The notes under the pieces: model-generated | Database searches by the model: none | Told to the model about the DNA's origin: nothing | What the model saw: the letters and a program-made list of their open reading frames with translations, nothing else | Source: Candidatus Latescibacterota bacterium | GTDB lineage: Bacteria; Latescibacterota; CBDEFO01 | Direction: 5' to 3' | NCBI GenBank assembly: GCA_965237525.1 | Contig: CBDEFO010000003.1 | Location: 55,468-119,467, forward strand | Length of the DNA stretch: 64,000 nucleotides | Program-made: the position numbers and the translations under genes | Part shown: positions 25,479-62,161 of the stretch, piece after piece | How the letters are laid out: every line of letters starts with the position of its first letter | How positions within the stretch are numbered: position 1 is the stretch's first letter

Positions 25479-26255
25479 TTATTGCTGAAAATGAACGATC
25501 TTTGAGAAAGATTCGGGGTCGAGTGAGGCTCCGCCTATCAGCCCGCCGTCTATATTATCCTCCTCCATCAAGTCCGATATATTATCAGGCTTGACGCTCC
25601 CTCCGTAGATTATTCTCACTGCGTCGGCTGTCTCGCTGTCGTACATGTCCAAAAGCAAGTACCTTATGTAGGAGTGCACCTCCTCGGCCTGTTGGGGCGT
25701 CGCTGTCTTGCCCGTTCCGATAGCCCAGACCGGCTCGTAGGCTATCGCAAGCTTTTTGACCTCATCAGAGGAGATCCCTGCCAACCCGTTCGATATGTGA
25801 TCCCTCACCACATCGAACGTTTTTCCTTCTTCTCTCTCCTCCAACTTTTCGCCGATGCACATAACAGGGGTCAGGTTATGTCTCAATATAGCCATAACCT
25901 TCTTATTGACCTCATCATTGCTTTCTTTGAAATATTGTCTCCTCTCGCTGTGACCCGCTATCACATAGCTACATCCAATATCTTCAAGCATAGACGGTGA
26001 CACTTCTCCTGTGAAGGCTCCTTCGTCCTCCCAGAACAGGTCCTGGGCTCCTAAACCGATGTTTGATCCCTTTATTACCTTGCCTACCGCATCCAAAGCC
26101 GTAAAGGGGGGGGCAATGAAAACCTCTGCATTGTCACTTACATCCTTCACTAAGTCCACGATCTTTTTTGATGTCTCTACTGCCTCTCCCACAACCTTAT
26201 TCATCTTCCAGTTCCCGCCTATTACGGGGATCCTTGACATGCCTTTTCTCCTCAA
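25479..26255 (-). CDS. tpiA: triosephosphate isomerase
   Basis: [54 protein letters not shown]. The likely start is MSRIPV at 26240. Confidence 0.9.
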   Translation of the reverse strand: MRRKGMSRIPVIGGNWKMNKVVGEAVETSKKIVDLVKDVSDNAEVFIAPPFTALDAVGKVIKGSNIGLGAQDLFWEDEGAFTGEVSPSMLEDIGCSYVIAGHSERRQYFKESNDEVNKKVMAILRHNLTPVMCIGEKLEEREEGKTFDVVRDHISNGLAGISSDEVKKLAIAYEPVWAIGTGKTATPQQAEEVHSYIRYLLLDMYDSETADAVRIIYGGSVKPDNISDLMEEDNIDGGLIGGASLDPESFSKIVHFQQ

Positions 26256-32651: not shown

Positions 32652-34170
32652 AAGCCTTGTGAAAAACCCTTAGATTCAGAAAATAGTATAAAACAAGCAT
32701 TGATAAAGCAGCTCCGATGTATTATATTATGTTATTGATAATATTATACATGGAGGAAACAATGACCCCACAAAAGCAGGAACAGACAAATCCGATGTTT
32801 CACTATTTTCAGATGGAGGATTTAGTTCCCGAGGATCATATCCTTCGTCAGATTGATGAGGCAGTTGATTTTTCATTTATACGAGACGTTGTATCAGATT
32901 GTTATTGCCCTGACAATGGCAGACCCGGTATTGATCCTGAATTAGTTGTTCGAATGATCCTTATTGGCTATCTGTATAATTTGAGTGAGAATCGGCTCTG
33001 TCAGGAAGTGGGGATGCATGCGGCATATCGGTTGTTTTGTCATCAGACATTTGATGATGCGGTTCCGGATAGGAGCACGATCAACAAGCTTCGCAATCAC
33101 AAGTGGGCATCCAGTGGGTTGTTTGAACGGATAATGCGTCAGGTAGTCCAGTGTTGCATAGATGTCGGTCTTGTGAGCGGTAAACACCTTAGTGTCGACG
33201 GCACTCAGATACAAGCTGATGCTTCAGTGAAAAGTATTGAGCCGATAGAACCCCCTGTTTCTCTTGATGATTATCTCAAGGGAATCGGTTTTGAAGGTGA
33301 TAAGACAAAGGGTAGGTCCGGGCATCCTCAGGATAAAGACTTTCATGGTGAAAAGTGGACGAACCAAACACACCGTTCGACTACAGACCCCGACGCGCGC
33401 TTATACAGCAAATCGAAGGGCAAAGGGGCTTTTCTCTCGTTTATGGGCCATGATCTGATCGACACAAAAAGCAGAGTAATCCTTGAGACTCAGGGCACGC
33501 AGGCGACAGGGACAGCAGAGCCCGAAAGTGCCCTTAAGATGGTAGATGACCTTGAAACATACACCATGCCCAAAGACATTCAGACACTTAGTGCCGATAC
33601 CGGTTACGGTTCTGGTAATTTTATCGCTGATGTACTTGACCGGGGAATCATACCCCATATTCCTCTGCGAGCCGATGAGAAGATTGAACCGATTCCTACA
33701 TGGAAAAACAAGACAAATTCAGCACATATTCAGGCCGAACGGGATAGAAAAGTGCGAGAGGCGAAAGCCAGAAATCATGCACGGTCTATCTCATTAACAG
33801 CTGACTACAAACTCTCCCGGAGACTCCGTAAACGCAGTGAACATATCTTTGCTGAAGCCAGGCAACAACACGGTATGGGACGAGCCCGTTACAGAGGACC
33901 AGCCTCACTGAATGAACAGTTGAATCTTGTTGCAACAGTACAGAATCTCAAGAGGCTTGTATCTTTCATAAGAAGGGGGAAAGCGTCTATGTGTGCCCTG
34001 TCTGTCAAAGACAGTGCATCCTGTTCTTCAAACAGCTCCTGTTCCTTGCTGACCAGAACTCTGATAAGACTATTTTGCTTATTCCACAGCAAAACGATAC
34101 GATATGCTACTCTTTGACCCATAATCGGCGCTTCAGACGCTGCCTGGGACATAACTATTTCACAAGGCTT
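32652..34170 (+). mobile_element. IS element copy 3 (1519 bp)
   Basis: Same inverted repeats, with TTAA direct repeats at 32648-32651 and 34171-34174. Confidence 0.9.
32717..34117 (+). CDS. IS1182/IS5-superfamily DDE transposase (466 aa, intact)
   Basis: Differs from copy 2 at one residue (FSFIRDVV versus FSFVRDVV). Confidence 0.9.
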   Translation: MYYIMLLIILYMEETMTPQKQEQTNPMFHYFQMEDLVPEDHILRQIDEAVDFSFIRDVVSDCYCPDNGRPGIDPELVVRMILIGYLYNLSENRLCQEVGMHAAYRLFCHQTFDDAVPDRSTINKLRNHKWASSGLFERIMRQVVQCCIDVGLVSGKHLSVDGTQIQADASVKSIEPIEPPVSLDDYLKGIGFEGDKTKGRSGHPQDKDFHGEKWTNQTHRSTTDPDARLYSKSKGKGAFLSFMGHDLIDTKSRVILETQGTQATGTAEPESALKMVDDLETYTMPKDIQTLSADTGYGSGNFIADVLDRGIIPHIPLRADEKIEPIPTWKNKTNSAHIQAERDRKVREAKARNHARSISLTADYKLSRRLRKRSEHIFAEARQQHGMGRARYRGPASLNEQLNLVATVQNLKRLVSFIRRGKASMCALSVKDSASCSSNSSCSLLTRTLIRLFCLFHSKTIRYATL

Positions 34171-37620: not shown

Positions 37621-39117
37621 ATTCAGAAAGTAGTATAGAACAAGCATTGATAAAGCAGCTCCGATGTATTATATTATGTTATTGATAATATTATACATGG
37701 AGGAAACAATGACCCCACAAAAGCAGGAACAGACAAATCCGATGTTTCACTATTTTCAGATGGAGGATTTAGTTCCCGAGGATCATATCCTTCGTCAGAT
37801 TGATGAGGCAGTTGATTTTTCATTTATACGAGACGTTGTATCAGATTGTTATTGCCCTGACAATGGCAGACCCGGTATTGATCCTGAATTAGTTGTTCGA
37901 ATGATCCTTATTGGCTATCTGTATAATTTGAGTGAGAATCGGCTCTGTCAGGAAGTGGGGATGCATGCGGCATATCGGTTGTTTTGTCATCAGACATTTG
38001 ATGATGCGGTTCCGGATAGGAGCACGATCAACAAGCTTCGCAATCACAAGTGGGCATCCAGTGGGTTGTTTGAACGGATAATGCGTCAGGTAGTCCAGTG
38101 TTGCATAGATGTCGGTGTTGTGAGCGGTAAACACCTTAGTGTCGACGGCACTCAGATACAAGCTGATGCTTCAGTGAAAAGTATTGAGCCGATAGAACCC
38201 CCTGTTTCTCTTGATGATTATCTCAAGGGAATCGGTTTTGAAGGTGATAAGACAAAGGGTAGGTCCGGGCATCCTCAGGATAAAGACTTTCATGGTGAAA
38301 AGTGGACGAACCAAACACACCGTTCGACTACAGACCCCGACGCGCGCTTATACAGCAAATCGAAGGGCAAAGGGGCTTTTCTCTCGTTTATGGGCCATGA
38401 TCTGATCGACACAAAAAGCAGAGTAATCCTTGAGACTCAGGGCACGCAGGCGACAGGGACAGCAGAGCCCGAAAGTGCCCTTAAGATGGTAGATGACCTT
38501 GAAACATACACCATGCCCAAAGACATTCAGACACTTAGTGCCGATACCGGTTACGGTTCTGGTAATTTTATCGCTGATGTACTTGACCGGGGAATCATAC
38601 CCCATATTCCTCTGCGAGCCGATGAGAAGATTGAACCGATTCCTACATGGAAAAACAAGACAAATCCAGCACATATTCAGGCCGAACGGGATAGAAAAGT
38701 GCGAGAGGCGAAAGCCAGAAATCATGCACGGTCTATCTCATTAACAGCTGACTACAAACTCTCCCGGAGACTCCCTAAACGCAGTGAACATATCTTTGCT
38801 GAAGCCAGGCAACAACACGGTATGGGACGAGCCCGTTATAGAGGACCAGCCTCACTGAATGAACAGTTGAATCTTGTTGCAACAGTACAGAATCTCAAGA
38901 GGCTTGTATCTTTCATAAGAAGGGGGAAAGCGTCTATGTGTGCCCTGTCTGTCAAAGACAGTGCACCCTGTTCTTCAAACAGCTCCTATTCCTTGCTGAC
39001 CAGAACTCTGATAAGACTATTTTGCTTATTCCACAGCAAAACGATACGATATGCTACTCTTTGACCCATAATCGGCGCTTCAGACGCTGCCTGGGACATA
39101 ACTATTTCACAAGGCTT
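37599..39117 (+). mobile_element. IS element copy 4 (1519 bp), flanks do not match
   Basis: Same inverted repeats. The left flank is TTAA (37595-37598) but the right flank is CTAA (39118-39121). Confidence 0.9.
37664..39064 (+). CDS. IS1182/IS5-superfamily DDE transposase (466 aa, intact, most diverged copy)
   Basis: Several substitutions relative to copies 2 and 3 (NKTNPAH, RRLPKRSEH, DSAPCSS, SSYSLL). Confidence 0.9.
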   Translation: MYYIMLLIILYMEETMTPQKQEQTNPMFHYFQMEDLVPEDHILRQIDEAVDFSFIRDVVSDCYCPDNGRPGIDPELVVRMILIGYLYNLSENRLCQEVGMHAAYRLFCHQTFDDAVPDRSTINKLRNHKWASSGLFERIMRQVVQCCIDVGVVSGKHLSVDGTQIQADASVKSIEPIEPPVSLDDYLKGIGFEGDKTKGRSGHPQDKDFHGEKWTNQTHRSTTDPDARLYSKSKGKGAFLSFMGHDLIDTKSRVILETQGTQATGTAEPESALKMVDDLETYTMPKDIQTLSADTGYGSGNFIADVLDRGIIPHIPLRADEKIEPIPTWKNKTNPAHIQAERDRKVREAKARNHARSISLTADYKLSRRLPKRSEHIFAEARQQHGMGRARYRGPASLNEQLNLVATVQNLKRLVSFIRRGKASMCALSVKDSAPCSSNSSYSLLTRTLIRLFCLFHSKTIRYATL

Positions 39118-49546: not shown

Positions 49547-50173
49547 GTGAAGCTACAACTTGCTTTAGATCTTGTCGATATCCAGGGGGCAAGATCCCTG
49601 CTTGAAAAGGTCGCTGATCTGATAGACATAGCTGAAATAGGGACCCCCTTCGTTATAAACGAGGGCGTGAACGCTGTTACGGAGATCAAGAAGGCCTATC
49701 CTGAACTTGAAGTGCTGGCCGACCTCAAAATCATGGATGAAGGAGCGCTTGAGTCAAAGATAGCGTTTGAAGCCGGAGCCGATATCGTAACCGTGCTTGG
49801 TGTGACTAATGACGTCACGATTCAGGGCGCCGTAAATCAGGCCCGCGCATATGATAAAAAGGTGATGGTGGATATGATGGCGGTCATTGATTTACCCGAG
49901 CGCGCCCGTCAAATAGACGCTATGGGAGCCGATTATGTCTGTGTCCACACCTCCACCGATGTTCAGAAACTGGGCCTGAACCCTTTGCACGAACTTGAAC
50001 TTGTGCATCCGCTCTTGGAGCATGCTGGGTTGGCGGTAGCTGGTGGAGTAAAACCAGAGATACTATCTCAGATTGTGACTTTTCGTCCGGAAATCGTAGT
50101 TGTGGGTAGTTTCATAACCGGTCATCCGGATCCACGCGAGGCCGCCCTTGCAATAAGGGAAGGGCTGAACTAG
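49547..50173 (+). CDS. hxlA: 3-hexulose-6-phosphate synthase (OMP-decarboxylase-fold; KGPDC-type alternative not excluded)
   Basis: KLQLALDL...IDIAEIGTPF...ADLKIMD...VCVHTSTD...GLAVAGG. It is followed directly by a PHI gene. GTG start after GGAAGGAG; the track ORF begins earlier, at 49487. Confidence 0.75.
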   Translation: MKLQLALDLVDIQGARSLLEKVADLIDIAEIGTPFVINEGVNAVTEIKKAYPELEVLADLKIMDEGALESKIAFEAGADIVTVLGVTNDVTIQGAVNQARAYDKKVMVDMMAVIDLPERARQIDAMGADYVCVHTSTDVQKLGLNPLHELELVHPLLEHAGLAVAGGVKPEILSQIVTFRPEIVVVGSFITGHPDPREAALAIREGLN

Positions 50174-50186
50174 AGAGGAAGATGCG

Positions 50187-50747
50187 GTGAGCATACAAAC
50201 ATACATCGATCAGATACTCGACGAGCTAAGAAGAACCCTGGCTCACGTATCCAACGATCAGGGGGAAAAACTTGCCAGGGCTATCGTAGATGCCGGGACT
50301 GTCTTTGTTGCAGGGGCAGGCCGGTCGGGTCTGGCGATGAAGAGTTTTTCTATGCGTTTGATGCACCTGGGTTTTGACAGCTATGTGGTGGGAGAAACCA
50401 TAACACCTAATATAACGGACAAAGATCTGCTGTTGATCGGCTCAGGTTCCGGTGCAACTGAAAGCATAGTAGTAAATGCCGACAAAGCCCATAGAATTGG
50501 CGCTACAGTTGGCCTCATAACTATTCAGGAGGACTCACCTATCGGTCGGGTGGCAGATCTGATCCTCACTATACCCGCCCCTACGCCCAAGATAGATAGA
50601 GACCTCGGCTTTATGTCGCTCCAACCCATGGGGTCTCTGTTTGAACAGAGCCTCCTGTTGACCCTGGATGCGATCATCCTTATGCTGATGGACAAAACCC
50701 GGAGAGACAAGGATGCCATGTTCGAAAGACACGCCAATCTGGAATAA
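50187..50747 (+). CDS. hxlB: 6-phospho-3-hexuloisomerase (SIS domain)
   Basis: 186 aa. VFVAGAGRSGLAMKSFSMRLMHLG, LLLIGSGSGAT and SLFEQSLLL, as in PHI/SIS proteins. Confidence 0.75.
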   Translation: MSIQTYIDQILDELRRTLAHVSNDQGEKLARAIVDAGTVFVAGAGRSGLAMKSFSMRLMHLGFDSYVVGETITPNITDKDLLLIGSGSGATESIVVNADKAHRIGATVGLITIQEDSPIGRVADLILTIPAPTPKIDRDLGFMSLQPMGSLFEQSLLLTLDAIILMLMDKTRRDKDAMFERHANLE

Positions 50748-51310
50748 CGGAGTATGAACATAGCGCGTATTCTGGTCGTCTGCATGAACAGAACAGCAAG
50801 ATTCACATTTTAGATTACGGGCATGCGACCGCGATAGGGAATCCAGGCGGTGCGGAAAACAGATTAATCAGTGCAACTTTAGCTATGCATTACAATATGA
50901 AAAAATCATATTCGTAAAGCCAACGTCTATCGTAACAGAACAAAAATAAGGAAAGTCCGGAATCGTTCCAGCAGAAACGCAGCAGACAATAGTCAGTCAG
51001 TAGAGGTTGAATGCCAAATGAAATGAGAGCGCTAGACAGTTGTTCAGTTGTGATTCGGAAAGGTTGCTCTTCTCAAGAATTTGTCACACGTTGGACGACC
51101 TTCTTGCCCTTACAACCTGAAATTAAATGTAGGGGCGCGGTTGACTCGCCCCAAGAGCAGGGTTACCCTGCCCCTACGAATACGCATGTGGGGGGCAAAG
51201 CGTTCCTGGAAAAACTGAGACCAAAATGTTTTGCCTTTCCGAATCACAGCTAAGATCTATTTTATCAGGCAAGTTAAAGAGGACACACAACAAGCAGATA
51301 AAGCCGTGAT

Positions 51311-51331
51311 CCCCGATTGATTCTATCGGGG
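51311..51331. repeat. CCCCGAT-N7-ATCGGGG palindromic element
   Basis: CCCCGATTGATTCTATCGGGG, intergenic, at the low-GC side of the 50.8-kb composition boundary. Confidence 0.5.
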
Positions 51332-51583
51332 ATGTCTTAAATGACAAAGTGTTTCTTCCCTCCTTTTACATCAACTACTTTGTCCTGGCTGAATGGAACC
51401 TAAAAGAAGAACAATTATACATCCATTTTGAAAAGGAGCAAAAACCAAAGGTTATCAGAAAGCTATCATTCAAGATTAATCAAAGATCCAAAGAGAAGTG
51501 TTCTCATTTCATATGACCAATAACCAGTAGATACTGCACCTCCTTCTACTTTAGCCGTCCTTGCAGGGCGACGCAGGAGCAAG

Positions 51584-51607
51584 CCCCCCATAGATTCAAT
51601 CGAGGGC
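51584..51607. repeat. degenerate copy of the CCCC..ATAGATTCAAT..GGG element
   Basis: CCCCCCATAGATTCAATCGAGGG; compare CCCCAATAGATTCAATTGGGGG at 18715-18736. Confidence 0.45.
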
Positions 51608-51700
51608 AAGCCACGAAGTAGGGTAAGCAATCTGCGTTATACTGCCTCCACCTTTGTGCTGTCCAATGTGTGCTGACTGCTTGTCCTACGACTATAGCTT

Positions 51701-52747
51701 CTATGTTACAGGAAGTTCGACTTCCGCCTCCCTTAAGTACCTTGCGGCGTCTTCAGGCAGAGTGGGATTGATGTAAAATCCGGTTCCCCACTCAAAGCCT
51801 GCTACCTTTGTCAGCCTCGGGATGATCTCAATATGCCAGTGGAAATCGAACTCCAGAGTTCCCCAGTAGCCGGGTCTTCTGGGTCCTGCCTCCGTGTTCG
51901 GAGCCGTATGCAGCATAAAATTATACGGCGGATCTGAAAGACTTACCTTCAATTTGGCTAACACATCCTTCAGACTCTCACATAGTGCCCCTATTTGGTC
52001 CTCTTGTATATCCCCAAAATCGTGAGAATGCCGGGTTGGAGCTAAAAAGACCTCAAAGGGGAACCTGGACGCGTAAGGGGCTATCGCCACAAAGTCGCCG
52101 TTTTCGAAGATAAGCCTCTCTCCTGACGAGATCTCCTGATCTATCACATCGCAGAAGAGACATCTTTCCTTTAACATGTAGTGATTCTTTGCCGAATCGA
52201 GCTCTTGAGCAACAATCTTAGGAGTAACTGGAGTTGCTATCAGTTGAGTGTGAGGGTGAGAAAGCGACGCTCCGGCAACTTCCCCGTAGTTTTTGAATAT
52301 CAGGATATACCTGAACCTTGGATCCTTCTTGAGGTCGTTCAATCGGAGCTTGTAAGCTTTCACCACAAGTTCTAGATCCTCTACAGGCATATCTGCCATA
52401 TTCACAGTGTGGTCAGGCGTCTCGATCACCACCTCATGTGCACCAACGCCGTTCATAACATCGAATATACCGACGCCCCTTCGGTCCAGATCTCCTTCGA
52501 TTCTCAAAGCTGCAAACTTATTGGGAACTACCCTCACCTTCCACCCCGGAGAGTTAGGTTCTGTCCCTTTATCCCTGAAGGCGAATATCTCGGGAGGCGT
52601 CTTATCCTCATTTCCACCGCAGAATGGACAGAAATCCGGTATCGGTTCCTCGGCGGTTATATTGAAGTCTGAGGGTCTCCTTGCCCTTTCTGTAGATATT
52701 ATAACCCATCTTCTCTGTATGGGGTCGTGCCTCAATTCTGGCATATT
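51701..52747 (-). CDS. galT: galactose-1-phosphate uridylyltransferase-like (class I GalT / HIT-superfamily nucleotidyltransferase)
   Basis: RHDP...RWV..S..R..RP, CPFCGGNE, and the HPHTQL histidine-triad motif. The likely start is MPELRHDP at 52747; the track ORF extends to 52795. Confidence 0.75.
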   Translation of the reverse strand, partial: NMPELRHDPIQRRWVIISTERARRPSDFNITAEEPIPDFCPFCGGNEDKTPPEIFAFRDKGTEPNSPGWKVRVVPNKFAALRIEGDLDRRGVGIFDVMNGVGAHEVVIETPDHTVNMADMPVEDLELVVKAYKLRLNDLKKDPRFRYILIFKNYGEVAGASLSHPHTQLIATPVTPKIVAQELDSAKNHYMLKERCLFCDVIDQEISSGERLIFENGDFVAIAPYASRFPFEVFLAPTRHSHDFGDIQEDQIGALCESLKDVLAKLKVSLSDPPYNFMLHTAPNTEAGPRRPGYWGTLEFDFHWHIEIIPRLTKVAGFEWGTGFYINPTLPEDAARYLREAEVELPVT

Positions 52748-52759
52748 AACACCTCTGAT

Positions 52760-52783
52760 CCCCGACCCCTGATTTAATCGAGG
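52760..52783. repeat. degenerate CCCCGA..GATTTAATCGAGG element
   Basis: CCCCGACCCCTGATTTAATCGAGG spans the stop of the GH57 gene and the short spacer before galT. Confidence 0.4.
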
Positions 52784-54936
52784 ACCAAAACACAAAACTC
52801 AAAGTTGCATTCCCATCTATCTTTAGGACCTATCCCTATCTTCCAATTGGGAAACACAACGGAGCTTTGATATGTCCTTTCAAAGCCTTTTTCCGATTGC
52901 GAAACTGTCTCCACAGGAAAACGCCATACGTCTGTCTTTCTATCGAATTTTAACGACACAGTCAAATTCCGATCATCGTCGTCTAAATCTATCCTATCTA
53001 TTCCTTCAACAGCTCCTGTGCTCCCTAAACTGCAATCCTTTAAGTCCACTTGTAAATTTCGACTACGGATCTCGTAGTGCCTTGCTGGTCCCTCTCCTGA
53101 TAGAAATGAAAAATTAAACTCCACGCCGAACCAGAGTTCTACGTCCGCATCCAGAGGGTTTTCAATAACGTAGCGCACATCCACTTGGGCGTTAGATTTA
53201 GACATCTTAAGCTTCTTGGACACCGTCAAAGGTTGTTTCTTTTGTCCGTATATCCCCCCATCTCTTCGCATTGATACCTCTTTGCCACCATTTTGATCCT
53301 TAATATCGTACAAATAAGGCTGATTCACAAAATCTCCCAACTCCCGGTACTCGCACGCCTTGAATCCTTCAAGTGAGGTCCCTTCTCCCAGGAAATGATC
53401 CAGAAAGCACACTCTGTTGTACCAGTCATATTTGAGATAACGCTCGATTCCCTCCTCCGTCACCTTAGCCAGGTCGTGAATACTGCCAGGCCCTTCATAC
53501 TGTTTGCCCTCCACTTCTACCTCATACCTGCCCTCTATGATATCCCTGTGATAGCTTTCAGGCCTCCTTGACAGAGTGTTCACCAGATTGAAATCTCTCG
53601 GCTTGTAGTCCAATTCAAAGAGTGACCCGCCGTAGGAAGGATCAAGATACAGATTCAGCAGGCCGTTGCTCAAGATAATCTCATCTTTTCCGTCCCCGTC
53701 AAAATCCAACTCCTCGGACTCAATCCAATCTCCTGAACCTTTTTCCTCTTCATCGGAGATCCTTTCGGCCCTTATAAGGTGTCTGTAAACGGTGTCCCTT
53801 AGATGAGGCAGATAGAGACCTCCGAACACGCCGTGCCAGTAAGCACAGTTACACTGTCCTTTCCATAGCTCGCTTATAGCTTCTCCCTCCCCTTTTAAAT
53901 CGACTTTCCTGCTCACAGAGAGCATCTTTTTGTGCATATTGTTGCTCTCATCATACTTGGCCAGGAACCCCCTCCAGAATCCGCCCTTTAAGAACACCTT
54001 ATACTTTTCTATCTCTCCTTTGTCCTTCAAATCCTCCACAATATCCTCAAGCTCCGCTCCCTTTTGAGATGGGAGAGTCCATTGGCTCATCTCAAAATAA
54101 GAGGCTGTCGGGAGGTATGCCCTGCCTGAAGCCGGGTGCTTATCGGTGAAGTCCGAAAAGGTAGTGGTATTAATCCAATCGCTGTTCTCCTCCAGAGCAC
54201 AGAAGAACTTCTCCAGCCACTTCTCCTTATAGACCCAATCGTAAGTCTTGGGCCATAGGCCGAACTTCTCTCCGTCGTCAACGATCACCGATAACCTGTC
54301 TCGATTCAGAGAGGTCGGATCGTTCTCAGTGCCCATGTCTCGTAGATAATCGATTGTAAATTCTGGTAACTTGAACGGAATTCCGTATCTCAGCCTTTCG
54401 CTTATCGGAAAGATAGAGAGCACATACCCCTGTTCTTCAGTATTGAAATATCCGTAGAGTTCCTCTTCGTTGAATCCGGCGCTTTTGAAGTGATAATCGT
54501 CGAGGGCTACATACTTTATCCCCGCCTCAGCCAGCGGCTTGGGTAGGTGAGGCTCCCATACCCTTTCAGGCAGCCACATCCCCCTTGCCTCGTACCCGAA
54601 TCTATCCTTGATGTAATCTGTCAACATCTCTATTTGACCTATCTTATCCCTGTCGGGGATAATAGGCATAATAGGCTCGTAGAATCCCCCGGTCATCATC
54701 TCGACCTGTCCTCTATCTACTAACTCTTTCAGCATAGCGATAAACTCAGGTCTCTTTTGCTCTATCCATTCCAGAAGACAGCCGGAATAGTGCAGAACCA
54801 TCTTTATAGAGGGGTGCCTTGAAAGGATCTGGATAAAGGGCAGATACGACTTTTTGTAGGCCATTTGAAAGACAGAGTCAAAATTCCCCACTGGTTGATG
54901 GCAGTGTATCCCGAATATAAGATTTATCCTCTTCAT
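52774..54936 (-). CDS. GH57-family alpha-glucan enzyme (4-alpha-glucanotransferase/amylase type with C-terminal beta-domains)
   Basis: GIHCHQPVGNF, GGFYEPI, WLPERVWEP and ALDDYHF are the GH57 conserved regions. The start MKRINLIF at 54936 overlaps the upstream stop (ATGA). Confidence 0.85.
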   Translation of the reverse strand: MKRINLIFGIHCHQPVGNFDSVFQMAYKKSYLPFIQILSRHPSIKMVLHYSGCLLEWIEQKRPEFIAMLKELVDRGQVEMMTGGFYEPIMPIIPDRDKIGQIEMLTDYIKDRFGYEARGMWLPERVWEPHLPKPLAEAGIKYVALDDYHFKSAGFNEEELYGYFNTEEQGYVLSIFPISERLRYGIPFKLPEFTIDYLRDMGTENDPTSLNRDRLSVIVDDGEKFGLWPKTYDWVYKEKWLEKFFCALEENSDWINTTTFSDFTDKHPASGRAYLPTASYFEMSQWTLPSQKGAELEDIVEDLKDKGEIEKYKVFLKGGFWRGFLAKYDESNNMHKKMLSVSRKVDLKGEGEAISELWKGQCNCAYWHGVFGGLYLPHLRDTVYRHLIRAERISDEEEKGSGDWIESEELDFDGDGKDEIILSNGLLNLYLDPSYGGSLFELDYKPRDFNLVNTLSRRPESYHRDIIEGRYEVEVEGKQYEGPGSIHDLAKVTEEGIERYLKYDWYNRVCFLDHFLGEGTSLEGFKACEYRELGDFVNQPYLYDIKDQNGGKEVSMRRDGGIYGQKKQPLTVSKKLKMSKSNAQVDVRYVIENPLDADVELWFGVEFNFSFLSGEGPARHYEIRSRNLQVDLKDCSLGSTGAVEGIDRIDLDDDDRNLTVSLKFDRKTDVWRFPVETVSQSEKGFERTYQSSVVFPNWKIGIGPKDRWECNFEFCVLVLD

Positions 54937-55640
54937 ACGTACCACATCCTCTCCAGAAAATCCTTCCCGGGGACCTCTACTGTCATGGCTCCGTGCAGAG
55001 GCCACACCTCCATCTGTGAACCACCCTTCACAACGTATATCCTTACCCCAACGCTCTCTCCCTTCGACGCTCCCAGGGTGTCAAACGGCACTTTTACCTC
55101 GAACACCTTATCTACTCCTACTTCGATATCTGGGAAGTTCTTATTGTTGTTCTCAAGGGACATATCGAGTCCCAATCTATCTTTTCCCACAACCTCTATC
55201 GCGACAGAGATGCCTTCATCTCTCATCTGGTCGGGACTTATTGTCGTATCCGCTCTCAGATAGAGATTCTCTAGATCGAAGCCGTAATGCACGTTCTTTA
55301 AGATCGTTCCTCCTCGATGCGTCGAACCCCTTTCGCCACCCATGCTGTGGCATCCTGCGCTCAACCACTCATAGTACCCTGTCACCTTTCCATCTATAAC
55401 GGGGCATATGAAATCCACAGGCTCCTTGAAAGGCAGTCGCTTCTCCACCTTTGTAAGAGGAACATCCAGATATCCCGGCGGTTCTTTGCCTATCAACTGG
55501 TAGAAATTCTTCAGATGACCTCTGAAGAGACTGTCGAACTGCTCATCGTGTGATGACGAATGATCTGCCCCGTACCACCAGAACCAGTCGCTTCCCTGGG
55601 CCATATAGATCTCATCTTGCGCTCTTCTTACTGCAGGAGA

Positions 55641-55665
55641 TCCCACCCGATTTAATCGGGAGGGA
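55641..55665. repeat. TCCCACCCGATTTAATCGGGAGGGA palindromic element inside coding sequence
   Basis: It lies in frame in the GH57 gene, coding ...DPSRLNRVGS... Confidence 0.5.
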
Positions 55666-56098
55666 TCCTCTTTTAGACTGTCCAGTTCATCACCAGCCAT
55701 CTTTAGATACTCCCAGCCCCTATTCTCCTCTTCGTCGCCTATCCAGGTCCCGAAATTGGCGTCTATCCACGAACCCGGAAAGATCCTCTTCAAACGCGTC
55801 CCTTCAGGGTGCATCTTTAGAAAAGAATTAAAAGTTATAGTCTTTAATCCTTTGGTGTTACTCAACTTCTTGTACAGCGCCCTTAGAAACTCGGCTCCAT
55901 TTTCCCTGTAATTCTCCCAGGCGTTCTCACCATCCAATATTATCGAAACTATGTGCGCTCCACTGTCTGCCTCAATGCCGTCTCTTATATTCAAAAGGCG
56001 CCCCACGAAGTCCTCCGCCGCTTTTTTGGCATCCCATGTTTGATACACAAACCCTATAAGGTCGGACAATCTGTGGTCTCTGAAGAAGAGCTTTATGT

Positions 56099-56138
56099 CC
56101 CCGATTGAACCCCCCCCCGATTAAATCGGGGGGGGGGG
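56099..56138. repeat. CCCCGATTGAA + C9-GATTAAATC-G11 palindromic element inside coding sequence
   Basis: On the plus strand, CCCCGATTGAA-CCCCCCCCC-GATTAAATC-GGGGGGGGGGG. This is the site of the GH57 frame change. Confidence 0.7.
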
Positions 56139-57127
56139 ATTTGTCTCCATCTCCGAAGCTGTACATCCGAAAGGGCGTTCCACTTTTTCCGCTTAGCTTG
56201 AGAGACTCCCTCAAAACTCCGTCGTCGCTTGCCATCCAATCTATCCCCAAACCGGCGGCGATATTCCCAACTTCCTGGCTTATCGAACCTTCAGATGGCC
56301 ACATTCCAGAAGGAGTTTTTCCAAGAATCCTATTGTGAAACTCTAAAGCTTCCACAATCTGAGCCCTGGCATCCCCTGGCCTTTTTAACTTCAAGCGGGG
56401 GAGATTAGCTTGCGGAAGACCCTCCCTTGCTGAATCAGTATCGCACAAAAGCGGCAATATGGGATGATGAAAGGGACTAGTAGATATTTCGATCCTTTCT
56501 TCATCCCACAATCTTCTGTAAATCTGGGTTATCTTGCCTATAATCTCTCTTTCCAACTCAAGGAGGACCCTCTTATTGTCCTCAGAATAGCCCCTTCCCT
56601 TCCTCAAAAGTTCCACTATCTGATCTTTCTCTTTCAGACTATTCCCGCACCACGCCAGATTGAAGCAGACCTGAAGGTCCAGAAAATCCTCCTTCTTAAA
56701 CCTCTGTACTGCCCTTTCCAGATTATCCCCGTCTCTACGTCTCATCGCGTAGAGTTCATAATATCTCTTAAAGGGTTTTATCATATTTTCAAAATTTGCG
56801 TGGAAGAAATTTTCCAAGATAAAGACCTTATCATCCAAAGAGAGTTCTTCGGCTTCCTTTTTCGTCAGCTCCCAGAATTTATCGCTGGCCTTTCCCTCAG
56901 CGTAATCCTTCAACTGGACTAAAAGCGATGGGACCAAATTAAACGTCACCCTCACCTCCTCGCATTCATCCACGATAGCTGCCATATCGTAATAATCCTT
57001 AATACCGTGCAGATACACCCATGGCAGAATGTACTCCCCTGAGGAAAGGTCCTTATAAAATGGCTGGTGCATGTGCCACAAAAACGCCACATAGAGCGGA
57101 TGCCCCGATTTTGTCGAAGCATCCACG

Positions 57128-58465
57128 CTATTTCCCCCTCCTGACTTCCACCTTCAAAACCCTCCTGTCGGTCGCATCCACAACCCTGAACCATACGCCC
57201 TCTTGTGACATAATCTCCCCTACCTTGGGTAGCCTTCCGAAAAACGAGATGAGCATTCCGCCTATCGTCTCGTAATCCTCCTTTTCAATCTTCAAGCCAA
57301 GTTTTTCGTTCAATTCATCTATCTCCATCCTACCTTCTACGACTACTGCATCCCTTGTGAGCTCAATTCCACTTGATCTATCGTATTCATCCTCTATTTC
57401 TCCCACGACTTCCTCTACAATATCTTCCAAGGTTACTATCCCGGAGATTCCCCCATACTCATCCACGACCGTGCCCACATGCTTCCCGTTGGCCCTGAGA
57501 TCGGCCAGTACTTCCTCGGCGCTTTTCGTCTCAGGCACGATATAGACATCGTCCATGACCTCTTCAACAGGGGCATTTTCGTCCAACCCAATTAGATCGA
57601 CGGCGTGAACCATGCCCACCACATTATCCACTCTGTCTCTATAGACCGGAATCCTCGAATGTCCTGTCTGGATCATCAGTTTTGCAGTATGACCAACATT
57701 TTCAGACACAGACACAGCCACAATATCTATCAGGGGGACCATAATCTCCCTAGTTCTGAGCTCCCCAAAGTGGAATATATGGTGGATCATTCTTCTTTCA
57801 TCTCTGTGCAGAGCTCCGTGCCTTTCACCCTCCCTTACGAGTATCTGAATCTCATCTCTGGTGACAAAGGGGCTTTCATTTTTGACATCGCCGCCAACTA
57901 TCTTGGCAATAAGATTTGAAATAGAAGTAACAATCGCCACAATGGGGAGCATCGCAAAATACGACACCTTCAGAGGAAAGATTGTTACGAGGACCAACCT
58001 GTCGGCATACTGCCTTGCCAGGGACATCGGCACTATCTCGCCGAAGATAAGGATCAGAGGCCACATAATCGCCGCAGAGACTATAGCCACAAGGTCCTTG
58101 CTCACCCATTCGACCGCCAGGCTCGCAGCGACTGCAGACCCTGCGACAATAGGCAAGTTCACTCCCACCATCGTAGCTGCCAAGAATTTCTGTGGCTCAT
58201 CCAAAAAATCCACGGCAACCTTTGCCAGCTTGTTACCGCTTTCGGACAGATGGCGCAATTTTAGCCTGTTGCAGGAGAGCATAACCATTTCAACTCCGCT
58301 AAAAAACGCCTGTGCTCCCAGGCACATAAGGATGATGATTATTCCTGTAAGTTCACTCAAAGTATCCGGCGCTCTCCTTTTTAACAAGTAAGTGGACAGG
58401 CGTGCCCCCGCCGCTAAGATTGCTTGGGTCTTAGGTCCCCTCGCAATGACCCAAGTGAAAGCCAA
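57128..58465 (-). CDS. DUF21(CNNM)-CBS-CorC_HlyC membrane protein (CorC/TlyC family)
   Basis: N-terminal multi-TM DUF21, a CBS pair (…REIMVPL.DIV…, …VVDEYGG.SGIVTLEDI.EE.VGEI.DE), and a CorC_HlyC tail. The true start is probably downstream of 58465. Confidence 0.8.
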   Translation of the reverse strand: MAFTWVIARGPKTQAILAAGARLSTYLLKRRAPDTLSELTGIIIILMCLGAQAFFSGVEMVMLSCNRLKLRHLSESGNKLAKVAVDFLDEPQKFLAATMVGVNLPIVAGSAVAASLAVEWVSKDLVAIVSAAIMWPLILIFGEIVPMSLARQYADRLVLVTIFPLKVSYFAMLPIVAIVTSISNLIAKIVGGDVKNESPFVTRDEIQILVREGERHGALHRDERRMIHHIFHFGELRTREIMVPLIDIVAVSVSENVGHTAKLMIQTGHSRIPVYRDRVDNVVGMVHAVDLIGLDENAPVEEVMDDVYIVPETKSAEEVLADLRANGKHVGTVVDEYGGISGIVTLEDIVEEVVGEIEDEYDRSSGIELTRDAVVVEGRMEIDELNEKLGLKIEKEDYETIGGMLISFFGRLPKVGEIMSQEGVWFRVVDATDRRVLKVEVRRGK

Positions 58466-58482
58466 ACGATGTCATTGCGAGC
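58439..58482. repeat. TCGCAATGAC ... GTCATTGCGA inverted repeat
   Basis: Perfect 10-bp arms separated by 20 nt. It has the same core as the 8034 and 9394 elements and lies between the two CBS genes. Confidence 0.55.
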
Positions 58483-58539
58483 AACAGCTAAGCTATTTCT
58501 TAAACAGGACATCACCATCCCTGCGTACTGTCTACTTGT

Positions 58540-59814
58540 TCAATCTGTGTCCTCTGAAGAAAGTTCCCCCTGATCTTTTAGCTTTCTGACTTCAACCACA
58601 TGTATCCTGTTTGCCTCTGCCTCTGTAACCACAAACTCCATATTATCGTGCACTAACTTATACCCTACATCAGGTATCTTTCCCAGGCGACCAATTATAA
58701 ATCCTCCAATTGTCTTATGAGCCTCGTCCTGAAGATTCGTTCCAAATACCTCGTTGAAGGCGTCAAGCTCTATTTGGCCGGCTACCCTCACGGTCATCGA
58801 ATCAATCCTTTCAAACAAAGTATCCGTTTCCTCTTTATCAGCTACCTTGCCGAATATTTCCTCCAAAAGGTCCTCCATAGTGACTAAACCCGACACAGAG
58901 CCGTACTCATCCACCGCCAAGGCGATGTGGATTCTATCCCGCCTGAATTCCCTCAGAATCTCTCCTGCCCGCTTTTGCTCAGGCACGAACGACACAGAGC
59001 GCAGTCTCCTGCTCATATCAAAGTCATCTTTGCCCTTAGCTCCTAAAAGATCCTTAGCGTACAGGATCCCGACCACATTGTCAAAATCACCCTTGTAGAC
59101 CGGTATCCTGGAATATCTTTTCTCCCTTATCGAACTTATAACTTCATCTATAGGGGAGTCTATATCCAGCGTGAACATCTGAGCCTTGGGACTCATCACG
59201 TCCGCGGCCCTTTTTTTTCCCAGGTCTATCACCCGTTGCATCATCTCTTTTTCCTTTAGATCGAGCACACCTTCCTGCCCTCCCGCCTCAAGAGCAACCT
59301 TCAATTCCTCCTCCGTAATTCCCGATTCAGGGGGAGGTTCCCCCATGCTTGCCAGCCAGATTATAAGGTCCACAATCGCTCTTACCAATCTCCTCACCGG
59401 AAATATGACTTTCGACACTGTGCTTATGATGGGTGCCACTATAAAAGAAATTCGCTCGGCATTATGAATTGCTATTGTCTTGGGGGCGATCTCGCCGAAC
59501 ACTAATATCAAAAAGCCCATAACGACGATAGATATTTCCAGCCCCATCTCGCCTAAAACCCGCTCAGCTATACGCTCGGCTATAGTTGCAGAATAGATAT
59601 TTACAAACATGTTCACCGACAAGATAGAGATCAAGAGTCTCCGTGGGTTCTTTAAAAGTTCCACTATGAGCTTACCCTTCTTATCCTCCTCCTGTTCGAA
59701 CCTTTCCAATCTCACCTGGCTCAAAGAGAAAAGCGCTGTCTCAGAACATGAGAAGAACGCTGACAAAAAAAGCAGGATTACCAACATCAATAATGGAAGC
59801 CATAGATATTCCAT
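58540..59814 (-). CDS. DUF21(CNNM)-CBS-CorC_HlyC membrane protein, paralogue
   Basis: Same architecture as the preceding gene: FFSCSETALFSL, AVDEYGSVSGLVTMEDLLEEIFG, and a C-terminal CorC_HlyC domain. Confidence 0.85.
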   Translation of the reverse strand: MEYLWLPLLMLVILLFLSAFFSCSETALFSLSQVRLERFEQEEDKKGKLIVELLKNPRRLLISILSVNMFVNIYSATIAERIAERVLGEMGLEISIVVMGFLILVFGEIAPKTIAIHNAERISFIVAPIISTVSKVIFPVRRLVRAIVDLIIWLASMGEPPPESGITEEELKVALEAGGQEGVLDLKEKEMMQRVIDLGKKRAADVMSPKAQMFTLDIDSPIDEVISSIREKRYSRIPVYKGDFDNVVGILYAKDLLGAKGKDDFDMSRRLRSVSFVPEQKRAGEILREFRRDRIHIALAVDEYGSVSGLVTMEDLLEEIFGKVADKEETDTLFERIDSMTVRVAGQIELDAFNEVFGTNLQDEAHKTIGGFIIGRLGKIPDVGYKLVHDNMEFVVTEAEANRIHVVEVRKLKDQGELSSEDTD

Positions 59815-59914
59815 CTTCGGAACCTATGATAAAAAAAGGCGTTAAAAGGCCGACGGACTCTGTCAAAGATTATATCGACTCTTCAAACACCTCCACCAAC
59901 AAGAGTTCAGCCCT

Positions 59915-61030
59915 TTAGAAAAATACGTGAAGTTCAAAGGTTAACCGATCTTCACTTTCCCGGGGTCTCTGAGGGACACTATCGTTGATGTGGTAAAACA
60001 CGCTCAACTGAAGAAACTGGGTTATGAAGGGTTCCAAGCCAATAGTTACCCTTTCGCTTTCGTCCTCATCAACTTGGGGATCGGCATCGAAAAATCGGTC
60101 CCAGAAATCGTAAGTCACCTTGAGGTTGATACCCTTTGTAATCAAAAAGTCAAGTTCCCCCAAAAAGGCAAGTTCCTTTCCAAAACGGTCGTCCCTGTCA
60201 CTATCTATAAAGTCTAACTCGCTTAAAAGAGTCAATCTTCCGAAATTTGCTCCTGCAAAGTGTCCATATACCTTCCTGGTCGTTCCGGGAAACTTGTTCC
60301 TTGAAAACGATCCTCCGAACCTGAAATGTCTGAAAACAACATAACCTATCAAGGACACCTGCTTACTCCTGTTGTCATCAGATAATCCCCGTCCGGACCC
60401 GTTGCTTAGAGCTACGCTAAAAGAAAAAGGCCCGGGCTCTATGCCGCCTTCTATACCGAAGTCTTGTATATTGTAGTTAAACCCCGTCTTCTCCCTTATA
60501 AATGCAGCATTGTCCAGGAGTCTTAATCCGAACGGGAGCAGCATCCTTCCCGCCTTGAAATAGCCCCTCAAGGGCAGATTGTATAAGATCCCGTATGCCT
60601 CCCTGTTGCTTGCCCCAGACGGACCTAAGTTCTCATCAACATACAAAGTTAGCAAATCCTTTATGAGCTCCATCTCCACATAAGCGTTCGCGGTTCTGAT
60701 CTCTATGCTGTTATCGTTTTCTCTATCCACTCCGAATATCGTCTGGTTATTAACCCTCAAATCCGCGCCTAGAGATATATAATCGTTTAGCCTGTTGTCA
60801 AAAAGGGCTTCGTTAGAACGTTTGACGAATCTGTGGGGGAGACGCGTGTAGCTGTACATCAGGCCGAAATCGGTCCTTTTTCCTCCTCCCGTCGGATTCA
60901 CATGGCACTGGCTGCACTTGTATCCCGTCCTCGCTGCCAGATAAGGCTCAGCGCGGCAGAACTTTGGAAGAACTACAGCTCCTGAAACTAGTATCCAGAT
61001 CAGACACACAGCCTTTAACTTTTTTTTCAC
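59915..61030 (-). CDS. outer-membrane beta-barrel protein with N-terminal CXXCH haem motif (Cyc2-like fused cytochrome-porin candidate)
   Basis: Signal peptide, then YKCSQCH (about 60902-60916) some 12 residues after the predicted cleavage site. About 320 aa of alternating beta-strand-like text follows, ending ...TFELHVFF (terminal Phe, an OMP signature). Confidence 0.6.
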   Translation of the reverse strand: MKKKLKAVCLIWILVSGAVVLPKFCRAEPYLAARTGYKCSQCHVNPTGGGKRTDFGLMYSYTRLPHRFVKRSNEALFDNRLNDYISLGADLRVNNQTIFGVDRENDNSIEIRTANAYVEMELIKDLLTLYVDENLGPSGASNREAYGILYNLPLRGYFKAGRMLLPFGLRLLDNAAFIREKTGFNYNIQDFGIEGGIEPGPFSFSVALSNGSGRGLSDDNRSKQVSLIGYVVFRHFRFGGSFSRNKFPGTTRKVYGHFAGANFGRLTLLSELDFIDSDRDDRFGKELAFLGELDFLITKGINLKVTYDFWDRFFDADPQVDEDESERVTIGLEPFITQFLQLSVFYHINDSVPQRPRESEDRLTFELHVFF

Positions 61031-61057
61031 CTTCCCGCCTGTGACTCGTAGAAGAGT

Positions 61058-62161
61058 TCAATCGTTATTGGCTCCCCTTAATATCCACTCCTTTATCACA
61101 TCTATTTGCTCCTGGGGCAGGGGTGGCTCACCGGAAAAGAAAGGCGGCATCTGGTCTCCCACGATTCCGTTCCTGCCTTCCAACTTCCAGATCATATAGC
61201 TGTTCTCAGGGTCGCCCGGATCTACTCTCGGGATTCCTATCGAACTGTCGACCCCGACCAAATTATCGAAGGACTCGCCCTCCTCAAGGGTGAAAGGCCC
61301 TGTCCCTCCTGGGACGTGGCAATTTATACATATTGCGCTAAATACATTTTCCTGAATAGCTGACAGCGTGGGCGGGAAGGGTCCGGACATCTGGACGCTG
61401 ACCATGATATTGACCACCACACTCGACTCGTCGCTGTCATTGCTTATAATCTCTACCGCACCCTCAGCTGAGGTGGCTTGGAGGAGGGATGTGTTGATCA
61501 GCAGCTTAAGGAACACTGACCCACCCGGTGGCACTGTTTCATCAGATAGCGCCAGGGGGGTGATCCAGTCGACAGTTGAGACCAGACTGCTCAACGCCAG
61601 ATCGGCGCTTCCCAGGTTCTGGATAGTCACAGTAAGAGTGTCCGACTCTCCCTCCACTATCTCTGCGCTGAGATCAAGGGGGGTAACATTTATCTCCGGC
61701 AGCGGCATCTCTGTGACGGTCAGGACGATTGCGATTGTCTCAGATGGACTCTCTGCGTCGTCGCTCAGGATCGTAAGCGTCCCCTCTGATGAGCCAAGAG
61801 GGATATCGGTTGCATCAATCCTAATGAGGATCTCCAGCGACTCGTCTTGGCCCAGAGCTTTGGAGGCCACAAGCGTCGTGGCCCACGGCACGTCCGAGCT
61901 GACACTCAAGACAGTCAGCGGAAACCCTCCCACGTTTGTGACCGTCACCGAGACTGTGTCGACCGTTTCCTGAGTCAGCGAAAGGCTGACCTGCCCAGGC
62001 GCCACCTGGATCTGAGGCGGACCGAGGGGATTCCCCTGCGGATCCAAAGTGCTGCCGTCTCCGGCGCAGGACAGAACAGAAATAGCGAACCCCAACAAAA
62101 GACATAAAATCCAAACTACCCTATTTTCCGCCTTGATAGTCCCCGTCCTTCGTCTTCTCAT
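61058..62161 (-). CDS. lipoprotein with two Ig-like beta-sandwich repeats and a C-terminal monohaem cytochrome c (Planctomycete PSCyt-like) domain
   Basis: The N-terminus MRRRR...ILCLLLGFAISVLSC contains a lipobox. There are two about 100-aa T/S/V-rich repeats (VSVTVTNVGGFPLTVLSV..., LTVTIQNLGSADLALSSL...). The C-terminus reads IQENVFSAICINCH...VDPGDPENSYMIWKL...MPP...L..EQIDVIKEWI. Confidence 0.65.
   Translation of the reverse strand: MRRRRTGTIKAENRVVWILCLLLGFAISVLSCAGDGSTLDPQGNPLGPPQIQVAPGQVSLSLTQETVDTVSVTVTNVGGFPLTVLSVSSDVPWATTLVASKALGQDESLEILIRIDATDIPLGSSEGTLTILSDDAESPSETIAIVLTVTEMPLPEINVTPLDLSAEIVEGESDTLTVTIQNLGSADLALSSLVSTVDWITPLALSDETVPPGGSVFLKLLINTSLLQATSAEGAVEIISNDSDESSVVVNIMVSVQMSGPFPPTLSAIQENVFSAICINCHVPGGTGPFTLEEGESFDNLVGVDSSIGIPRVDPGDPENSYMIWKLEGRNGIVGDQMPPFFSGEPPLPQEQIDVIKEWILRGANND

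Follow-up and report, generated by a model that had tools for sequence, protein, structure and literature searches.

The question raised by positions 56099-56138 of the stretch analyzed here (64 kb of an assembly of a Candidatus Latescibacterota bacterium, hereafter the window) is why a gene for a starch/glycogen-type enzyme of glycoside hydrolase family 57 (GH57) loses its reading frame inside a palindrome that carries a run of nine C and a run of eleven G. An earlier note on this DNA had left three options, namely sequencing error, a pseudogene or phase variation; these are still the right ones and can now be weighted. What it overlooked is that the insert belongs to a dispersed repeat family and is not a one-off. 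We consider it likely that the insert in the GH57 gene consists of nested, mobile-looking palindromes, that slippage within them broke the frame, and that the enzyme is off.

The split GH57 gene and its insert

Two open reading frames (ORFs) on the minus strand, 55972-57126 and 54933-56069, were found by profile search to be one GH57 gene in two halves. The first encodes the N-terminal half (384 amino acids, aa), with the HQP motif and the glutamate E279 in WPSEGS, and matches positions 1-190 of the GH57 profile PF03065 (E 6.8e-33); the second, in another frame, encodes the C-terminal half with the aspartate D398 in DGEN and the C-terminal domain, and matches profile positions 203-283 (E 1.7e-11). 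These complementary profile positions bear out the claim of the earlier note that the ORFs are halves of one enzyme, and the switch of frame was indeed located inside the palindromic element at 56099-56138. As the note had also proposed, taking one G from the coding-strand G9 run (one C of the plus-strand C9 run) restores a continuous protein, 730 aa long, and the same protein is intact in other assemblies. Around the junction the restored protein reads FGDGDKSPPPDLIGGGSIGDIKLFFRDHRLSD, and across the insert ...FGDGDK-SPPPDLIGGGSIG-DIKLFF...; its closest solved GH57 structures, 9jlq and 8zyi, match it at E ~1e-92. Both E279 and D398 are invariant across 55 aligned sequences, and we take them to be the GH57 nucleophile (conserved region 3) and the acid/base (conserved region 4), respectively. 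They flank the insert on opposite sides, so that the window allele puts each of them in a different ORF. Beyond the frameshift, no further damage was seen in either half. The annotated pair of GH57 "fragments" is a single enzyme hit by a one-base slip, not two genes.

On the plus strand, the 40-nucleotide (nt), out-of-frame insert at 56099-56138 consists of CCCCGATTGAA, C9 (56110-56118), GATTAAATC and G11 (56128-56138), and was delimited on the minus-strand gene by folding and by comparison of alleles. The palindrome arms, 56110-56122 and 56124-56136, are 13 nt each and 100% complementary around a loop of 1 nt, a perfect 13-bp stem; the palindrome and both tracts of the earlier description were thus recovered. 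The C9 and G11 runs are the longest G/C homopolymers of the 64-kb window, two G8 runs coming next. Within the insert, CCCCGATTGAA and CCCCGATTAAA form a direct repeat with a spacing of 16 nt. The inner hairpin CnGATTAAATCGn is nested in an outer one, CCCCGA...TCGGGG, that sister strains have preserved intact; the sister-strain allele folds in two tiers, with TCCCCGA/TCGGGGA outside and C5GATT/AATCG5 inside, and the peptide encoded by the insert is PDLIGG followed by SIGD. Two members of a dispersed family of tiny GC-clamped palindromes, one nested within the other, make up the insert, and the homopolymers are by-products of the GC clamps and of slippage by 12-nt repeat units.

The orthologue alignment that the earlier note had asked for supports its view that the 13 extra residues are an insertion. 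They are absent in all 54 homologues (~44% identity) and in the structures 9jlq and 8zyi; one homologue (P0080) has a shorter extra of 7 residues in the same loop. Judged from this alignment, the 13 residues are a lineage-specific insertion. In the AlphaFold model of the intact protein (mean predicted local distance difference test score, pLDDT, 85.7), residues 331-343 are modelled as coil between the strands 322-324 and 344-349, and residues 331-340 form the lowest-confidence block of the catalytic domain (pLDDT 51). The model thus predicts a floppy surface loop between the catalytic Glu and Asp.

Alleles in close relatives and the probable reality of the frameshift

The alleles of this site, including their tract lengths, were compared in assembled contigs of public sequencing runs and in three other assemblies. 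The 90% protein cluster around P0001, which equals the repaired protein almost exactly (730 aa, one residue different) and lies on a 1.95-Mb ENA contig, has five members. Two are intact at 730 aa (L001, the locus of P0001, and L242); one is intact at 734 aa (L241, from a related species, on a 4.54-Mb contig with 95.5% nt identity to the window); and the remaining two are a 384-aa and 357-aa pair on one 462-kb contig, i.e., a gene split as in the window. L001 is 99.77% identical to window positions 49932-62126 (12.2 kb). On the coding strand, L001 and L242 share the site AAAT CCCCGACCCCC GATTTAATC G8 TTCAATCGGGGAC, with 45 nt between the anchors, the window has AAAT C11 GATTTAATC G9 TTCAATCGGGGAC, with 46 nt, and L241 has AAATCCCCGGCCTCGGATTTAACCCACGATTTAATCGGGGGGGAGTCAATCGGGGAC, with 57 nt. 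In plus-strand terms, the C9 tract of the window at 56110-56118 (coding-strand G9) holds the frameshifting base, one more than the C8 of the in-frame alleles of the closest strains, and in the sister strains the place of the G11 tract at 56128-56138 (coding-strand C11) is taken by G5TCG4.

The L001 form, C8 and G5TCG4, was also present in five runs of near-identical strains (X2-X6), and an in-frame 51-nt form resembling L241 in runs X7-X9. Run X16, a marine sediment metagenome, held another in-frame 51-nt form, with the 12-nt unit within the C run; its allele sequence was reconstructed from the listed differences. Runs X1 and X12, which represent two samples from a single study, were identical to the window at the insert. 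Altogether, four alleles were seen in lineages at most 5% diverged, three in frame (39, 51 and 51 nt) and that of the window, 40 nt, out of frame. The runs with the GH57 locus bear coded organism names and labels of marine or sediment metagenomes, and SucC of the window shares 74% identity with a protein assigned to Candidatus Poribacteria; both are consistent with a sponge-associated or marine host lineage, as a hint and not as a classification.

The in-frame alleles differ by 12-nt units, that is, by slips between CCCCGATT(T/G)AA direct repeats. Removing the 12-nt unit of X16 would join C7 and C4 to C11, and we infer that the window C11 derived by such a 12-nt loss from an X16-like allele. 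A conversion of G5TCG4 to G11 through quasi-palindrome (template-switch) correction was set aside after the X16 allele was found; neither route is proven. The palindromic elements are hotspots of mutation: of the 28 differences that separate the window from L001, 6-7 are in ~85 nt of elements, and the indels that separate the window from L241 over 12.5 kb lie at two hairpin sites and in a patch at 61234-61295, apart from two single-base indels. That patch holds seven small indels within an ORF on the minus strand (61058-62161, DUF1573-like), most of the window-L241 indels outside hairpin elements. Since the repeated length changes keep the frame, the gene with its insert appears to be functional and under selection, and the window allele would thus represent either a loss of recent date or an off-state that can be reversed, unless it is an error.

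Contigs from two runs agree on the frameshift, which is therefore probably real: both C9 and G11 were reproduced exactly in the contigs of X1 (depth 7.8) and X12 (depth 4.5). We hold this with somewhat more confidence than an ordinary "likely" conveys. If instead the true tract were C8 and the extra base a homopolymer-length error in the window assembly, the gene would be intact. Consistent with such an error, the sole two indels between the window and L001 over 12.2 kb, at 56118 and 50905, are both in homopolymers, and a run of 9 beside a run of 11 within a perfect hairpin is a typical place for assembly errors. The length of C9 was read from assembled contigs, and a fixed frameshift is somewhat surprising because all three other alleles keep the frame. 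On the other hand, X1 and X12 agree on C9 and G11, although they stem from the same study, probably that of the window itself, which limits their independence. Moreover, the window differs from the sister strains by two substitutions as well (G5TCG4 as compared to G11), which a length error does not produce, and C8 was assembled cleanly in five other runs, indicating that the site is not generally mis-assembled. An assembly error is therefore unlikely in our estimation, yet it is the most serious competitor of a real frameshift.

A dispersed family of short palindromes

About eight copies of the palindrome family were found in the window. Hairpins of the type CCCGAT..ATCGGG occur seven times against 0.73 expected, and CCCCGATTGAA occurs 41 times at up to two mismatches against 21.6 expected, a count exceeded in none of 100 shuffles. 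An intergenic compound at 18704-18743, CCCCGATTGAAG [CCCCAATAGATTCAATTGGGG] GTCGGGG, has the architecture of the GH57 insert, the plan common to both being CCCCGATTGAA(G), an inner hairpin and (G)TCGGGG; in run X6 the GH57-type compound is also present between unrelated flanks. The 17-nt hairpins of the window are those at 29574, 55646 and 52767. The first, CCCCGATTAAATCGGGG at 29574-29590, lies on the minus strand in a Peptidase_MA ORF and encodes IPDLIGGD in the linker after the signal peptide; a reading of it as an exact insertion of 21 nt was not upheld, since the ATCG repeat at its flanks is one base off (22 nt). The second is part of a member with a 29-nt span, GATCCCACCCGATTTAATCGGGAGGGATC at 55639-55667 on the minus strand, which is a second palindrome in the broken GH57 gene and encodes DPSRLNRVGS. 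Among relatives it varies by substitution only (strain X7 has C7GATTAAATCG7), and an insertion could not be demonstrated there, in a region of confidently modelled helices where the family varies in length.

The third belongs to a member at 52760-52783 on the minus strand, which gives the last codons and the TAA stop of a GH57/4-alpha-glucanotransferase-like gene of 743 aa. At the 52767 site, L241 has the full compound, 12 nt longer, CGCCGATTGAA-C5GATTAAATCAGGGG-TCGGGG. This intact gene (52774-55005), with AmyA/4-alpha-glucanotransferase middle and C-terminal domains, and the broken gene of the 730-aa type (54933-57126) are arranged head to tail, followed by a galactose-1-phosphate uridylyltransferase-like gene. 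The three may form a glucan-metabolism cluster in which the GH57 paralogue might cushion the loss.

Units of 21 nt were found at three further sites. One (CCCCGATTGAACCTATCGGGG, 2962-2982) lies within or close to the start of an ORF with FG-GAP repeats; a decayed one (CCCCCCATAGATTCAATCGAGGG, 51584-51606) is nearly perfect at the orthologous site of L241 (CCCCGATAGATTCAATCGGG); and one (CCCCGATTGATTCTATCGGGG, 51311-51331) lies within a copy of a 523-nt MITE (miniature inverted-repeat transposable element) and is absent in a high-depth variant of that element. The MITE, at 51005-51527, has imperfect terminal inverted repeats of ~27 bp (GGTTgAaTGcCaAATGAAATGAGA) and a target duplication GTAG, and L241 lacks it, with the empty site TCAATAGATAC. 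Its segment 51225-51530 reached 14-60x the depth of the flanking genome in X2 and X7, with variants ~90% identical, and is thus multi-copy or shared. As for the two G8 runs of the window, the one at 9031-9038 (CCGATCGGGGGGGG) looks like one arm of a family palindrome and falls in 1.9 kb devoid of long ORFs, and the other, at 26106-26113, is inside the ORF 25479-26255 on the minus strand.

Beyond the window, the family comprises two units, a 17-nt unit CCCCGATTWAATCGGGG and a 21-23-nt unit C5GATTGAATCTATCG5 (generalized, C5GATTGAWYCTATCG5). The 21-nt core CCCCGATTGANNCTATCGGGG was present in at least 120 metagenome-contig stretches, against a rough chance estimate of a few, and 56 of 70 unique sites are flanked by C...G, making the full unit 23 nt. 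These loci range from 38 to 68% GC, indicating diverse hosts. A direct flanking repeat of exactly 4 nt was seen at 18 of 70 unique 23-mer sites, and none was longer; 1000 permutations of the flanks gave a mean of 2.0 and a maximum of 8. The repeats include CCAG/CTGG, TTAG, CCTG/CAGG, TAAA, CAAG and CCAA. The 17-mer occurs in many named phyla, from Patescibacteria to Nitrospirota. Direct repeats of 4-5 nt flank it at 20 of 120 sites, where 1.3 would be expected, and measure exactly 4 nt at 19 of these; most are TCAA/TTGA or CTGA/TCAG and stem from metagenome-assembled genomes (MAGs) of Patescibacteria and uncultured Gammaproteobacteria. At least 15 different tetranucleotides are found among the exact 4-nt repeats. 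The 21-nt core was absent from viral contigs, where the 17-mer had 14 matches, about its rough chance estimate; carriage of the units by phages was set aside on these results.

Gain of a unit was seen most directly in a filled and an empty site in homologous, ~92% identical metagenome regions (L153 and L139) that differ there by 27 nt. The filled site reads GTCCCCGA TAAA [C5GATTGAATCTATCG5] TAAA CGGGGG and the empty one GTCCCCGA TAAA CGGCGG; the 27-nt insertion, with TAAA duplicated, sits within the loop of an existing hairpin, CCCCGA-TAAA-CGGGG. Similarly, a nested 17-mer in L074 reads CTCCGA TTGA [unit] TTGA ATCGGAG. At a second polymorphic site of the same pair, L139 (4835-4857) has TG[C5GATTGAATCTATCG5]CTAT and L153 (~7580) has GGGATCTAC; here the difference is 19 nt and not 27, and may reflect imprecise loss or a footprint.

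Several conserved genes also harbor units, which Pfam domains flank on either side or enclose: GAPDH, RelA/SpoT, a class I/II aminotransferase, the FtsK linker, ResB, a PMT_2 glycosyltransferase and two transposases. The copies in GAPDH, RelA/SpoT, the aminotransferase, FtsK, ResB and the transposases are in frame, those in GAPDH, RelA/SpoT and FtsK being 23-mers, and the GAPDH site corresponds to a gap of 6-7 residues in PDB homologues. Each unit leaves four of six frames open, with peptides such as PRLNLSG, PDRFNRG and PPI(E/D)SIGG for the 23-mer and PDLIG, PRFNRG, PRLNRG and PIKSG for the 17-mer. The net gain is 17+4 = 21 or 23+4 = 27 nt; as either sum is divisible by three, a reading frame is preserved.

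Several observations weigh against a mobile origin of the units and of the GH57 insert. The 17-mer was found in at least 119 stretches of species-representative genomes against a rough chance estimate of ~70, and many of these matches look like terminators, with an extended stem and a T run. The 4-bp duplication was seen for just 15-25% of the copies elsewhere, most copies in the window have no visible target duplication, and a single clean filled/empty pair was found. At the GH57 copy itself nothing convincing was seen (AAAT and ACAT on the coding strand), so its origin by insertion is argued from family resemblance and from absence in distant homologues, no orthologue without the insert being closer than 44% identity. 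Finally, no enzyme able to move the units was found among the IS copies of the window or in the neighborhoods of units.

Alternatively, the palindromes would not be mobile at all but functional motifs, such as terminators or protein- or RNA-binding hairpins, that arose or persisted independently, and the GH57 loop would be an ordinary lineage-specific loop that such a motif encodes by coincidence. The terminator-like 17-mer matches and the missing link to a transposase near the units fit this explanation, as does the enrichment of inverted flanks (10 sites with at least 4 nt against 1.7 expected), and near-identical cores across phyla could mean a conserved binding partner. It does not, however, predict the sharp peak of direct repeats at exactly 4 nt with at least 15 different tetranucleotides, the filled/empty pair with its duplicated target or the nested copies, and in-frame copies in GAPDH, RelA and FtsK are at places where terminators could not be tolerated as such. 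We therefore regard immobile functional motifs as improbable, and read the units as mobile-looking.

Two larger arrangements of the units were also noted. In high-GC contigs (L155 at 343-436, L184, L217 and L238), 21-nt units are repeated in tandem with a 27-nt period (unit plus GCCAGC/GCTGGC) within long open frames that would encode PPIGSIGGQ or APDRVNRGL repeats; these arrays may be coding repeats or the result of repeated insertion into the same tetranucleotide. The 17-mer also occurs in a longer context, CTGGATT-CCCCGATTAAATCGGGG-AATGACA, in L003, L022, L076, L103 and L116 (reversed in L006), in MAGs of Nitrospiraceae, Nitrospinota, Methylomirabilis, Nitrospirota, Uhrbacteria and Thermodesulfovibrionales, which suggests a larger conserved repeat around the 17-mer in MAGs from Nitrospiraceae to Thermodesulfovibrionales.

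Proposed history and comparison with known systems

The proposed history would begin with an in-frame insertion of 39-51 nt in a surface loop that lies after the catalytic Glu and before the catalytic Asp. The insert is a nested pair of ultra-short repeats from a dispersed family resembling repetitive extragenic palindromic (REP) sequences or MITEs, whose units, where tracked, insert with a 4-bp target duplication, often in loops of existing hairpins, and are tolerated within genes where they fall in loops. With CCCCGATTGAA and CCCCGATTAAA as direct repeats, with inverted repeats and with runs of G/C, the compound is a hotspot of slipped-strand mutation. In the window lineage, a 12-nt unit would have been lost, fusing two C runs of the coding strand to C11, and a +1 slip would have turned the coding-strand G8 into G9 and broken the frame. 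With the frame broken, the catalytic Glu and Asp would be on separate polypeptides, and the enzyme is predicted from the sequence to be off in the window population, as a young pseudogene or in a reversible off-state. The anatomy of the site, its alleles, the repeat family with its target duplications, the filled/empty pair and the copies in conserved genes were observed; we infer both this order of mutations and the loss of GH57 activity. The break is accordingly best regarded as a loss that is either very recent or reversible, and a palindrome that was harmless at first, being in frame, would have become a source of mutation, as G/C runs and 12-nt slippage units arose from its clamps and internal repeats.

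Whether the off-state is adaptive is a separate matter. G/C tracts of at least 9 within ORFs are the classic slipped-strand switches of Neisseria, Haemophilus and Campylobacter, and the C/G tracts of the insert might likewise serve as a contingency switch that turns GH57 on and off reversibly within populations. Here, a mononucleotide tract of at least ~8 within the frame sets the frame, C8 being open and C9 broken; both states exist among ~99.8% identical strains, and the GH57 halves carry no other damage. Nevertheless, length heterogeneity within samples was not seen, in contigs that number one per run and hide minor variants, and the tract states follow sample and study without mixing. Furthermore, a cytoplasmic carbohydrate enzyme with an adjoining GH57 paralogue is an unusual class for phase variation, and the tract arises as a side effect of an inserted repeat, which varies likewise at non-coding sites. 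Adaptive phase variation thus seems a poor explanation, ranking slightly below even immobile motifs. Recoding, in which RNA polymerase or ribosome slippage on the G9 message still gives full-length enzyme, is very improbable, for although long homopolymers promote transcriptional slippage (as established for A/T runs of at least 9) and the required correction, minus one G, falls exactly inside G9, slippage is weaker on G/C runs than on A/T runs and all relatives have in-frame alleles, from which it follows that the gene can do without recoding.

Returning to the slipped, mobile-looking insert, we speculate, with less than even confidence, that the units represent an undescribed minimal class of mobile DNA that prefers YYRR-type targets and hairpin loops, duplicates 4 bp and never shifts the frame. 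If the family is what it seems to be, it would be the smallest mobile DNA with target duplication known to us. Such a mobile unit would be common to many phyla and would colonize housekeeping genes (GAPDH, RelA/SpoT, FtsK, GH57) in hosts from Patescibacteria and Nitrospirota to Poribacteria, with hypermutable G/C tracts and 12-nt slippage units able to switch host genes off as a side effect. It would also prompt one to ask what enzyme can mobilize a hairpin of 17 nt, why the loops of hairpins are chosen and what share of protein loop diversity in uncultured bacteria arises in this way. For the annotation of MAGs, such units would be a cause of split-gene calls and spurious low-complexity loops.

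As to the agent, no recurrent protein family was found within 600 nt of the units (240 loci; 484 ORFs in 402 clusters), and no REP-associated tyrosine transposase (RAYT) or other transposase was seen to recur beside them. An insertion sequence (IS) of the IS5 family is present in the window in four copies (6521-7921, 23471-24871, 32717-34117 and 37664-39064) with a 466-aa transposase (DUF772 and DDE_Tnp_1), the ORF of the first copy being in two parts, 6521-7072 and 7076-7921. It was dismissed as the mover: its ends, AAGCCTTGTGAAA, are unrelated to the units, although it too makes 4-bp target duplications (YTAR; TTAA, TTAG and CTAA were seen). A longer element with CCCCGATT ends was not found. 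To our knowledge, the HUH/Y1 (RAYT) enzymes that move classical REPs make no target duplications, and the simplest explanation would be a staggered 4-nt cut in the loops of hairpins or cruciforms, made by a nuclease of the DDE or another type. The hairpins are not a known RNA: the whole window gave no Rfam family at gathering score and no tRNA with ARAGORN. A sequence at ~8941-8968 (GGGGTTCGATCCCCCTCAGTTCCACCA) resembles a tRNA T-arm, the 3' half of the acceptor and CCA, with no ARAGORN or Rfam tRNA call, and may be an attachment-site remnant beside an IS copy. In the open-access literature, the exact motifs and encoded peptides returned nothing relevant (human p16 primers only), and searches by topic returned REP, Rickettsia palindromic element (RPE) and MITE papers only.

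Among described systems, the units resemble REPs and bacterial interspersed mosaic elements (BIMEs), which are imperfect palindromes of 20-40 nt, rich in GC and present in many copies, single, paired or clustered; the units, too, are short GC-rich palindromes in many dispersed copies. Some REPs lie in genes and encode loop peptides, some supply stop codons and some sit in small target palindromes (PMC3733652). In contrast to REPs, the units have no GTAG or CGTC end tag, starting with CCCC and finishing with GGGG between flanks without a fixed tag. They also carry an exact 4-bp flanking duplication, and are frequent in coding regions, no RAYT gene was seen beside any copy at the 240 loci, and their core is the same across very different GC contents and, for the 17-mer, across phyla, whereas REPs are species-specific.

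RPEs are ~100-150 nt long and confined to Rickettsia. They are palindromes in frame inside functional genes, at loop positions, as cited in PMC3733652. The units share this in-frame residence in ORFs but are 17-23 nt long (39-51 nt for the compound), have target duplications and occur in many phyla. With MITEs (Correia/NEMIS, RUP, ERIC, Nezha) they have in common that they are non-coding, dispersed and strain-polymorphic, with inverted repeats and short target duplications; inverted repeats with a duplication of fixed length were found for the family, though not seen at the GH57 copy. Known MITEs, however, are ~50-500 nt long and traceable to a parent IS, whereas a unit consists of two 8-11-nt arms and a 1-7-nt loop, and no parent of the units was found.

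The mobile G+C clusters of yeast mitochondria are likewise short GC-rich palindromes, in an AT-richer genome, with a duplicated short target, tandem arrays and a presence in the coding gene var1; they differ from the units in being organellar, in sequence and in duplicating a di- or trinucleotide instead of a tetranucleotide. As in the contingency loci of Neisseria, Haemophilus, Campylobacter and Helicobacter, a poly-G/C tract of at least 9 within an ORF sets the frame and close strains differ by one unit, but here the tract is the side product of an inserted palindrome and the gene encodes a metabolic enzyme. Set against the open-access literature, the family is a variant of the small-palindromic-repeat kind.

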